A DNA stretch of 64,000 nucleotides from the IMG/VR virus record IMGVR_UViG_2721755655_000008; one strand, given 5' to 3'. Shown here piece by piece: positions 3,001-6,000 of this stretch. The stretch is from a virus (lineage: Duplodnaviria > Heunggongvirae > Uroviricota > Caudoviricetes). The position numbers were made by a program. How positions within the stretch are numbered: position 1 is the first letter of the stretch; each line of letters starts with the position of its first letter.

Positions 3001-6000
3001 TGTTTGCGCATTGATGCCGAGATACGCTTCCAGTCTTCGCGGTCGTTGTCGATAACTTCATTTTTTGCCCAGCGATGGATGCTGCCGTCAATGTTTCCGG
3101 CATCCACATCACCAGGCCAGAGAGCGTAGGCCAGTTCGTCATCCAGTGTTTTCCATGTCTGCTTATATTCGCGACGAATGACTGCAGTGACAGGGGGGAT
3201 TTTTTCTGCTGAGTTTTCAGTGTGCTGTCGGTGGACTCTGGCGCGGGCGAGATCAACAACAGACGTGTATTTTCCGGTTTCCTTGCGTTCACCTTCGCGA
3301 CGTTTTTTCCAGATGCGCATTTCTGCCTGAATTTCGGGCCATTTGGCACCAGGCTTACATTTATGCTTAACCCACCCGATGGCATGCAGCTTAAGCTCCG
3401 GATACATGGCGTTAACTTCTGGCATTTTCATCAACGCTTCAACGATATGTCCGTCGAATGTTGCCATGTCTTCCTGCAACAATTCCTGCGCGCTAATCAC
3501 CATATCAACGGTGATGTTTTCACATGTGTCGAACTTAACCATGACAGCGTTCTGTACTTCAGGGGCCAGCTTGTCAAAAGCGACGTTCATCGGATCGGAT
3601 TCAGTCTCAACCGGGACAAAGGAAGCAGCCCCCTCATCCCAGCGGTTTTCCTGCATATATTCAGCATCCCAGGAATCGAGGGCAGGGCGGGGTATACCGG
3701 GTTTATCCTCGCAAACAAGAAATTTATAAGCGCAGTCCTGAGCAGCCGGATAATGCTCCAGGAATTGCCAGTGAAATTTTGCGCGGGCGCGACGTTCATC
3801 ACCGGCTTCAATGGCAGTGGCTACAGCGACTGCACCTTCTTCCTTTATTGCCTGTTCGTCCGGAATGGCGGCGCAAATAAAGACTTTACTCATTTTGTTT
3901 TACCTCATTACAGATTTAAGGGTGAACAAATCCCTGCCATTGCTGGCATATAAGAATGAAATCGGATGTTTATTACGGAACTGTTTTAAAGACCTGCCGG
4001 GATTTCGTTATTATCCTGGTGAATAACTTTATCGACAGGGTAACAGTTACCGGGAATTTTCTGTTCGGTTGCTGCAGTCACACACTCCTGCATTGTCCTG
4101 TGAACACTGACTGCAATATCAACTGGCTCTCCGGAAACAAGAAAAACTGTCAGAACAAGTGCAAATGCTGTATTCATTGCCAGCATCCTTTTTGTATCGG
4201 ACGTAAACGGGCCAGCATTGAAAGAATGCATATTTTATTTAATAACTCCCGTTCGTGTTTTCTCTTGTTAATGGCATCTTCAGTAAATACAGGGTTACTG
4301 ATAGTGACACCAATTTCAAAACAACCTTCAGACGTATTAACGTTTGGTAATAACGTTTCCATTATCGCGTCCTCAACAATGAATTTTGTGATGCGGTGCC
4401 TGGTGCCTCCAGGTGACGTTAACCAGTTAACAATTAACGCCGGATACAGAGAATCCCCCCATAACACTGTTTTTGGTTTTAACTGTTCCGCGTGCGCTTA
4501 GCCGCATTCACTGCATCACAAAATTCACTTTAAAAAGGGCGGACATCAGTTCATGGGCAAACAGATGCCGCCAAACGTCACCAGAAAATTGATAACAGAG
4601 GGCGTTGCAGCGGGGTTGTCACTTAAGCGTATGGTCAACCTGACAACCCGGTGTCCTCAACGGGGAAGGAATAACCCCGCCATACTTACCGCTGCGCCAT
4701 TTCGCGTTATGCTCTGACTTTTCAGAGAAATATCCTTTCAGTAAACTGTCAGTGCCGGATGTTCACCCGTGTCCGGCGCACGCACTCCACTTCACCCGTG
4801 GAGAACTCCTTAATTACCAACCCTCAGGAGGGTGAATGTTAAAATCAACTCTTATTGCTAAATGCCTTTATCAAAATCGCATGGTAAGCAGCATTTCAAT
4901 AGGCGAGTCTGCAGTTAAAAGTATTTTCGAAGAGTACTTTCCCGGGCATGATTTTAATAAATGGAATACCAAATTACCGCCAGCAGTTTCAACGCGTATT
5001 CTGAAAGCAACCGAAAGAGCAAGTACAATTCGCGTTAACTATTTCATTAAAGATTTGTGGGATCTTTGATATCCACAGAGCCTAAAGTATGTGCATATGG
5101 ATGTGCTATTATGCGCCCTCGCAGATTTGCATCATTTTCTAAATTCACTGAACGAAACAGGGCATCAACAAGGCTCTGTACAATGCAAAGGCAATCGAAG
5201 ACTGTCGCCGTTTCTGTTTTGATTGATGAAAGAACATGGCCATTCACGCAAACAGAAATTACCCGTTTATTAACATCGCTTTCCTGCTTTTGATTATCAG
5301 AACCATATAGCCCAGAAAAAGCATTGCGCACATTACGAACCATATTATCGATGGTTTCTTTTTCTGCGGTACTAAGGTCAAGAGTAGCCAGTTGTGAACG
5401 AACTATATTCGATGCCATTTCCTGTAATGGCGTTGGTAAATCTTTAAATTCCATTATTAGCCTCGTTGGTTAGCTATTAACGTGGGTATGTAATCATTCT
5501 GGCAATGCTTAATGCCGCTGCTTTTTCCAGATTGGTGATATCCTGCTCCAGAGCGGACAGATTTTCAGCCTGCTTAGCCCTGGCTTCATTGGCCCATTTC
5601 AGGTCCTGCACCGCCTTAATTTTCTGGTGCATCCACTCATAAAGTTCATCATCGGTATAGTCTGGCGCGATGATGACGGGGTCTCGTTTCTGCATGTCGG
5701 CTCCTTGTGGTTAGCGTTGCCTGCTTTTTAACCACGTCAGGCGAGGTGGTATCCTCTGAGGGGTCTGTTACTCGAGAGGAAATTGGTTATGAATACAATC
5801 AAGTTTTCTTGCCCAGAATGTGGTGGCTAAGTCTTTGACACATCCTTTAAGCCGCAGGGCTCTGACAGTTTCGCGGGAGCCATCTGCAAAAATTGTGGTC
5901 ACCTTGTAACTGAAGATGAGTCCTCGCAGTTCGATGACGAAATCGTTGACAATATCTTCGGTGCACTCACCAGAGACTTTCTGAAGTAAAGGCGCATACC

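Follow-up and report, generated by a model that had tools for sequence, protein, structure and literature searches.

A divergent DicF allele and a shortened leader in the dicBF operon of an Sp9-type prophage of Escherichia coli O157:H7

Introduction

DicF is a textbook prophage small RNA (sRNA) that, in enterohaemorrhagic Escherichia coli (EHEC), couples type III secretion to the sensing of oxygen. In the Qin prophage of E. coli K-12 the operon that encodes it is driven by a PL-like promoter under DicA repression, the transcript is cut in its leader by RNase III as well as by RNase E, and DicF stops at an intrinsic terminator of its own. Here we compare two loci of this kind found in the IMG/VR virus record IMGVR_UViG_2721755655_000008, of which a stretch of 64,000 nucleotides (nt), referred to below as the window, was analysed. 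Of the two prophages in this window, prophage 2 carries a canonical DicF and prophage 1 carries a second, discrete allele, which is probably a regulator acting through the 5' seed of the RNA and devoid of ftsZ repression.

Two bodies of published work are essential for the comparison. DicF is known to be cut from a polycistronic transcript, the 5' end of a 190-nt species being RNase III-dependent and that of the 53-nt species RNase E-dependent (Faubladier et al. 1990; PMC10448788), and a search for an internal promoter in K-12 gave no evidence of one (Ragunathan et al. 2023, PMC10448788). Mutation and compensation have demonstrated that pairing with ftsZ and pykA involves the 3' part of DicF, and pairing with xylR its 5' end (Balasubramanian et al. 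2016, PMC5069750). The engineered mutant DicF21 has lost the control of ftsZ and pykA and kept that of xylR, and causes neither filamentation nor growth inhibition, while DicF9 does not regulate ftsZ and still represses xylR (PMC5069750). Four Rfam-level DicF copies have been counted in strain EDL933 (PMC5331693), and reviews give four copies for Sakai and 86-24 (PMC7873438).

Results

Sequence and Family Assignment of the Two DicF Copies

Both prophages contain a dicBF-type operon on the minus strand, and it is on this strand that all the features named in a preliminary description of the window have to be read. The order of ydfC-like gene, leader, dicF, spacer, dicB and ydfD is that of K-12 Qin and of the canonical EHEC copies, and from just after ydfC to dicB both loci are homologous base by base to K-12 Qin (NC_000913.3, ydfC-dicF-dicB), the leader and the spacer being ~98% identical. 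The DicF counterpart of prophage 1 thus has the position of the canonical gene, since it is located downstream of a ydfC-type leader and ~170 nt upstream of dicB, on the same strand.

At gathering thresholds Rfam finds DicF (RF00039, gathering score 48 bits) in prophage 2 only (55931..55982, 75 bits). This canonical copy, 55931..55983 on the minus strand, is a full-length match and differs from K-12 DicF by one base (GUGGCUG vs GUGACUG). A permissive search yields a second full-length match at 4537..4586(-) in prophage 1, with 43.5 bits and E = 2.9e-8 (551-nt search), whereas canonical copies score 75-77 bits (the Sp4 copy of strain Sakai, 76.9). The score of the prophage 1 copy falls below the cut-off because its inner hairpin is replaced, and its homology to DicF is not in doubt. 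The variant comprises 51 nt (4537..4587, minus strand; UUUCUGGUGACGUUUGGCGGCAUCUGUUUGCCCAUGAACUGAUGUCCGCCC), the counterpart of the 53 nt of K-12 DicF. Its first 20 nt, the 5' seed region (4568..4587), are identical to the canonical ones, as are the GGCGG/CCGCC clamp and the U-tail; nt 21-45 (4543..4567) read CAUCUGUUUGCCCAUGAACUGAUGU instead of UAUCAGUUUUACUCCGUGACUGCUCUG, and the anti-Shine-Dalgarno motif CUCCG of the inner hairpin is lost. The sequence at the RNase E-generated 5' end (AUCAAU/UUUCUGG) is retained.

The contrast between the changed segment and its surroundings is sharp. In an alignment of window 4150-4900(-) with 55550-56400(-) the shared block starts within dicB, takes in the dicF-dicB spacer and DicF and reaches ~4780 / 56258, and outside the inner DicF hairpin it has 24 mismatches in 496 aligned positions (4.8%), while within this hairpin 14 of 25 positions differ, with 2 gap columns in addition (Fisher p = 2.5e-11 vs flanks). 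The two loci share a 19-mer, TTCTGGTGACGTTTGGCGG, of which the window contains exactly two copies, none being expected by chance. The observation originally flagged, namely a nearly identical non-coding region upstream of dicB with a canonical DicF in prophage 2 and, in prophage 1, a divergent one that keeps the first 20 nt and the terminator, is therefore real and far beyond chance. The near-identity of the leader is by itself no sign of constraint: the same ~98% identity runs on into dicB, which indicates a shared mosaic module.

Folding and Terminator of the Alleles

Every allele folds alike, into ~15 nt of single-stranded 5' region, a terminator hairpin and a U run, with energies of -15.9 kcal/mol for K-12 DicF, -15.4 for prophage 2 and -17.3 for prophage 1. 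The xylR-type seed UUUCUGGUGACGUUU lies within the 20 identical nt and is unpaired in the minimum-energy fold of the variant. The single strand is followed by a 13-bp interrupted hairpin with the stem GGCGG-CAUC-(U)-GUUU / GAAC-(U)-GAUG-(U)-CCGCC, which is another inner helix in another register, and then by a U5 tail (4532..4536, minus strand), the same as after the canonical copies, so that the RNA ends in a Rho-independent terminator and a presumed Hfq-binding 3' end. A simple terminator scan overlooked this terminator because its loop limit was 3-8 nt and the stem is interrupted.

The 3' arm of the variant, AACUGAU (AACUGAUG), is exactly complementary to AUCAGUU, the canonical 5' arm, and part of the allele change may have arisen by a templated (quasi-palindrome) mutation. 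This complementarity fits a one-step template switch and not stepwise selection, and the hairpin, the clamp and the U-tail are among the conserved parts. Both facts would suit a dead or neutral DicF that survives solely as an intrinsic terminator or attenuator for read-through into dicB and whose inner-hairpin changes, due to drift or to a single templated mutation, mean nothing for regulation. We regard this explanation as possible, though considerably less probable than a seed-type regulator; the pairing predictions, the distribution of the allele and the state of the leader all bear on it.

Predicted Target Pairing

Pairing was scanned with windowed ViennaRNA duplexes and opening energies (unpaired-probability penalties), and in a second scoring domain-restricted duplexes were compared with 1000 shuffles, percentages being the share of shuffles that pair as well. 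Full-length RNAduplex of the sRNA against 120-nt targets was rejected: it gave end-to-end duplexes without meaning and z-scores near 0.

For canonical DicF the windowed scan pairs sRNA nt 32-53 with ftsZ -28..-7, Shine-Dalgarno sequence (SD) included (hybrid -22.7 kcal/mol), nt 26-43 with pykA -18..+1 (-22.4 kcal/mol) and nt 37-54 with manX +35..+50 (-29.5 kcal/mol), and for all alleles it pairs nt 6-15 with xylR +9..+19 (-14.2 kcal/mol). It thereby reproduces the experimental domain map (PMC5069750). In the same scan the variant has no counterpart of the canonical ftsZ, pykA and manX pairings; the canonical pairing with ftsZ is centred on CUCCG/CGGAG, and the complementarity to the ftsZ ribosome-binding site is absent from the variant. 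In the second scoring the 3' domain pairs with ftsZ at -29.2 kcal/mol in the canonical RNA (4% of shuffles) and at -17.4 in the variant (94%), with pykA at -27.8 (0.9%) and -16.2 (65%), and with manX at -33.9 (0.7%) and -29.4 (6%), while the shared 5' domain reaches -20.3 on xylR (0.6%). The earlier suggestion that the changed middle could alter the target set is supported by these predictions, in agreement with the published map: ftsZ, pykA and manX pairing would be lost and xylR pairing kept. For pchA, the best DicF sites all use nt 1-15, which are common to both alleles, with weak energies (-6 to -9 kcal/mol); the predicted partner of the pchA SD is +24..+31.

The predicted behaviour of the variant resembles that of DicF9 and DicF21, in which ftsZ control (in DicF21 also that of pykA) is lost and xylR repression by the 5' end is kept (PMC5069750). 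The difference is that those mutants carry engineered point substitutions, whereas the variant is a natural block of 14 substitutions with a 2-nt change in length. The disappearance of the ftsZ-pairing segment is also what a dead DicF would display; the laboratory mutants, however, continue to regulate xylR without any control of ftsZ, which argues against equating this loss with inactivity.

The replaced hairpin might alternatively serve as a new second seed, so that DicF would be neofunctionalised and retargeted, for example to sites with CAUGGGYAAAC. Loop nt 26-35 (GUUUGCCCAU) are able to form 10 bp with the start-codon region of ftsB, GAUGGGUAAAC, a site that is identical in 5426 of 5426 genomes; the hybrid energy is -15.1 and the total -7.4 kcal/mol, vs -2.0 for canonical DicF and -7.1 for the validated canonical DicF-ftsZ pair on the same scale. 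Furthermore, a 14-nt stretch, UCAGUUCAUGGGCG (18228..18241, plus strand), within a 636-aa prophage open reading frame (ORF; 17093..19003) is complementary to variant nt 29-42 by 13 Watson-Crick pairs and one G-U pair, and has a paralogue in Sakai Sp4 (L275, position 31237); the chance expectation for such a complement in the scanned sequence is ~0.1. Ten-base matches to the 26-nt domain, however, arise at ~1.2e-4 per position (332 kb of E. coli sequence), which amounts to ~24 matches expected by chance in the translation-initiation regions of the whole genome and ~0.17 for a set of ~35 division genes, and ftsB was a chosen candidate and not the outcome of an unbiased scan. The ftsB pairing is a lead, not a finding, and on its own is not significant against this background; we consider a retargeted DicF unlikely.

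Distribution of the Alleles

The variant is present in 290 of the 5426 complete E. coli genomes (~5%; 288 at >=99% identity), mostly of O157:H7 and O55:H7 with some other lineages, and the canonical type in at least 3823. An identical variant is found in the E. albertii type strain NBRC 107761, and 23 IMG/VR contigs carry the allele, counting three with a 1-nt deletion in the seed. Pattern scans of IMG/VR anchored on the 5' seed and the terminator returned two classes only, namely canonical sequences, among them scattered point variants, and the sequence of prophage 1; they yielded point variants of either allele and no intermediates between them, so the prophage 1 DicF is a discrete allele and not a one-off. 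No donor of the replaced segment was found, its 24-mer being absent from IMG/VR outside dicF loci, and among 50,697 GenBank phage records the variant 24-mer occurs in none and canonical DicF in 22.

The dead-gene explanation is helped by the fact that the variant is no more invariant than its flanks. Yet the 20-nt seed is perfect across the 290 genomes and E. albertii, and the allele is spread over two species and several leader backgrounds with no further changes, which speaks against decay.

RefSeq has no annotation at either DicF locus. The Sp9 allele, which scores too low for the current Rfam cut-off, probably represents a fifth member of the DicF family that has gone uncounted in the strains for which four copies have been published.

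A third class of DicF alleles has G12A within the 5' seed (GGUGACAUUUGG), sometimes together with G38A, and is represented in ~75 IMG/VR contigs (L163 among them). The Sakai Sp4 copy (L275, 15733..15784) belongs to this class and has the full canonical Rfam score. Such variation of the seed could shift 5'-seed targets such as xylR.

Leader Hairpins and the RNase III Helix

The leader of prophage 1 contains a 9-bp perfect stem with a 19-nt loop (hairpin A, 4613-4621/4641-4649, minus strand; GGGTTGTCA/TGACAACCC) and a second hairpin, CGGGG...CCCCG (hairpin B, 4661..4679, minus strand), at which there is a 1-nt length polymorphism. Hairpin A, which lies at 56009-56045 in prophage 2, is invariant across loci and recurs in all the folds computed for K-12 and for both prophages. 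Further small hairpins occur in the upstream part of the leader (4712..4822, minus strand), which is homologous to K-12 to ~4822 and to prophage 2 to ~4780. The perfect hairpins of the preliminary description are thus present; what it had missed is that the region is the published DicF precursor with its 190-nt RNase III and 53-nt RNase E species (PMC10448788), hairpins A and B being inside the 190-nt region.

Between hairpin B and this upstream part, prophage 1 lacks a segment of 83 nt (85 by K-12 coordinates) found in K-12 and prophage 2, and is contiguous across the junction CAUAACGCGAAAUGGCGC (4694..4711, minus strand). The difference had been described as a ~75-bp insertion in prophage 2; it is instead a deletion in prophage 1, because K-12 Qin, prophage 2 and most other loci have the segment. 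The end points lie within the direct repeat CGCGAAA, which in sequence terms is the signature of slippage or microhomology deletion.

The missing segment folds to a ~23-bp helix in K-12 (L122, 1773-1796 / 1835-1858) and in prophage 2, where this RNase III-type hairpin occupies 56103..56191 (minus strand; arms 56166-56191 / 56106-56130). Measuring the published length of 190 nt from the 3' end of DicF, we infer that the RNase III-dependent 5' end is at L122 1846, in the 3' arm of the helix. Prophage 2 and K-12 accordingly have the whole precursor region with the long helix and both hairpins, whereas prophage 1 has kept the sequence at the RNase E end and has lost the RNase III hairpin, given this calculated placement of the 190-nt end.

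Of the complete genomes, 108 have the contiguous junction, Sakai, EDL933, 86-24 and PA20 being among them. The same flanks with the segment present occur in ~179 variant-carrying genomes, including O157:H7 strains FRIK2069, 493/89 and ATCC 43889, and 17 of the 21 exact-sequence variant loci examined keep the hairpin. Because most variant loci have the helix and both states exist in O157:H7, the deletion is a later event that is polymorphic within this serotype. The additional loss of the RNase III hairpin in the present strain is in line with a dead DicF. The junction was also seen beside a canonical-type DicF in one other genome, E. coli ECMA0423 (L138), where no dicB follows.

The leader had been reported to be free of ORFs, which is correct insofar as no conserved one exists; short ORFs are nevertheless present on the opposite strand. 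That a plus-strand protein-coding gene is responsible for the conservation, with a 54-aa ORF at 4553..4717 as the candidate (121 aa where the hairpin is kept), is highly improbable. A frame of 105-121 aa is open in ~65 of the 108 distinct leader sequences, and in the variant allele it gains an ATG start, located inside the variant DicF. This start is specific to the variant, canonical loci having TTG; owing to the 1-nt length polymorphism the frame is interrupted in about half of the leaders (the core is 129 nt long in 55 and 130 nt in 48); the frame has no Pfam match; and its strand is antisense to the experimentally mapped transcript (PMC10448788). An antisense ORF was rejected as the cause of the conservation in view of the broken frame and the lack of a Pfam match. 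A simple sigma-70 scan of 4300-5100 did not reveal any relevant internal promoter for dicF or for the plus-strand ORF.

Operon Layout and the Two Prophages

In the order of transcription the operon of prophage 1 begins with a DicA-like repressor gene (6331..6738) and three small ORFs upstream of the leader, which is ~250 nt long and directly precedes DicF. The dicF-dicB spacer (4363..4531, minus strand; ~170 nt) is nearly identical in the alignment of K-12, prophage 1 and prophage 2. It is followed by dicB (4174..4362, minus strand; 62 aa, Pfam PF05358 DicB with 127 bits, annotated in Sakai as ECs_1761), by a DUF1482/ydfD gene (Pfam) and by a large exonuclease gene. In prophage 2 dicB is at 55568..55756 (minus strand). 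The DicB of prophage 1 is K-12-like over its entire length; in that of prophage 2 the N-terminal half agrees with K-12 DicB, while the C-terminal half (...NMRKYEPYLLNDNSILSRIALLELGIFGERQ) is quite different.

Between the ydfC-like gene and the dicF leader each prophage has a small ORF on the plus strand, at 4836..5069 in prophage 1 (77 aa, ECs_1762) and at 56309..56530 in prophage 2 (69-73 aa, WP_001133037). The two are unrelated to each other and have no Pfam match, K-12 Qin has no such ORF, and the operon transcript must run antisense through both.

The spacer (4384..4535, minus strand) gives a sub-threshold Rfam match of 32 bits to the prophage sRNA family STnc100 (gathering score 47), as does the Sakai Sp4 spacer (L275, 15570..15719; 33.6 bits). 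Modules of the spacer recur in the true STnc100 (window 16736..16944), among them the hairpin CACCUGGAGGCACCAGGCAC vs CACCGGGAGGCACCCGGCA, with a compensatory change. Further Rfam matches in the window at 11618..11767, 63192..63366, 16394..16623 and 16736..17005 are two sok antitoxin RNAs, two transfer RNAs, STnc100 and the anti-GcvB sRNA AgvB, the last on the opposite strand; they are consistent with the sRNA dyads known from the late region of EHEC prophages.

Over its left part the window matches E. coli O157:H7 genomes with 100% identity, position 1 corresponding to ~NC_002695.2 1757686, and prophage 1 is of the type of the Sakai prophage Sp9. Strain PA20 (NZ_CP017669.1 from 3078124) and only ~39 other genomes are collinear with the window over all 64 kb. 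Prophage 2 is a second, truncated lambdoid element with a partial integrase and a partial recE, and Sakai has the trp operon at that place; together with the PA20 collinearity, this identifies prophage 1 as Sp9-type and prophage 2 as a different, defective lambdoid element. Within 40000..64000 an Sp9-type effector region (nleA, nleH, nleF and insertion sequence elements) is joined to prophage 2. This junction occurs in only ~39 of the 5426 complete genomes (PA20, 20R2R and others), Sakai having ompW' and the trp operon there, which suggests a prophage-mediated rearrangement.

Discussion

The identity of DicF, of its leader and of dicB is already known biology, while the divergent allele and, in this strain, the loss of the RNase III hairpin appear to be undescribed in the literature searched. 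Neither the variant sequence nor wording such as 'DicF-like', 'variant' or 'paralog' was found in that literature, the earlier dicF papers (Melson & Kendall 2019, Faubladier & Bouche 1994) being outside the search. HnrS (PMC13502914) is a different sRNA of Sp9.

The best-supported interpretation, as far as sequence allows one to judge, is that of a natural separation-of-function allele, in which regulation by the 5' seed would be kept and ftsZ-mediated inhibition of division lost. Window 4363-4822 is the untranslated stretch from ydfC to dicB in the dicBF operon of an O157:H7 lambdoid prophage of the Sakai Sp9 type, read from the minus strand. The new 25-nt inner hairpin and loop, set between the retained seed, clamp and U-tail, again fold into a stable terminator hairpin. 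The homology, the structure and distribution of the allele, the deletion and the complementarity lost or retained are shown by the sequences; we infer that the variant would be expressed, processed and bound by Hfq, and that its regulatory outcome would be that of an Hfq-type sRNA whose seed acts certainly on xylR-type sites and possibly on pchA, with no repression of ftsZ and hence no filamentation. In the branch of Sakai, EDL933, 86-24 and PA20, where the long leader helix is deleted, maturation would proceed by RNase E alone.

Several points weigh against this interpretation. The supplements of the Hfq cross-linking and analysis of cDNA (CRAC) study of Tree 2014 were searched and have no entry at the Sakai coordinates of the variant. 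The manX hybrid energy is only partly reduced, and the interaction energies were obtained with a home-made scan of duplexes and accessibility and not with a validated tool; the RNase III site was set from the published length of the precursor and is not a read coordinate. The invariance of the allele, matched by that of its flanks, could reflect recent spread and not selection. RNAalifold covariation in 76 distinct leader-plus-DicF sequences was uninformative, nearly every pair being invariant, so that no helix gains covariation support because the sequences are too similar; pooling both alleles breaks the DicF helix of the consensus.

It is instructive to compare the variant with AgvB and AsxR (EcOnc01-03), the anti-sRNAs of EHEC (Tree et al. 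2014, PMC4104026). Both cases concern multicopy prophage sRNA families with a conserved scaffold and a variable targeting segment. The anti-sRNAs, however, belong to another family, are encoded in the late region and act by sponging core sRNAs; moreover, in AgvB/AsxR it is the 5' part that is variable and the 3' part that is constant, whereas DicF has a conserved 5' seed and a variable hairpin/loop domain. A bolder view, which we hold to be doubtful, would make DicF a two-module sRNA with an exchangeable second module. The Sp9 allele would then be a functional fifth regulator missed by Rfam-based annotation, and perhaps in the four-copy count and deletion, which retains the 5'-seed regulon (xylR, perhaps pchA and virulence), has its loop redirected to other mRNAs, one candidate being the start codon of ftsB, and leaves division control uncoupled or rewired from ftsZ.

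If the allele is silent or inert, it is no more than a diverged copy of the ordinary kind within a mosaic module of the prophage. As a fifth DicF-like gene with an intact 5' seed below the Rfam cut-off, on the other hand, it implies that copy counts based on annotation, and strains deleted for multiple copies, may be incomplete. The polymorphism of the hairpin deletion in O157:H7 provides naturally matched strains for the contribution of the RNase III step, and the allele itself could be used to test which of the DicF phenotypes, namely filamentation, toxicity, metabolism and virulence, need which pairing domain.

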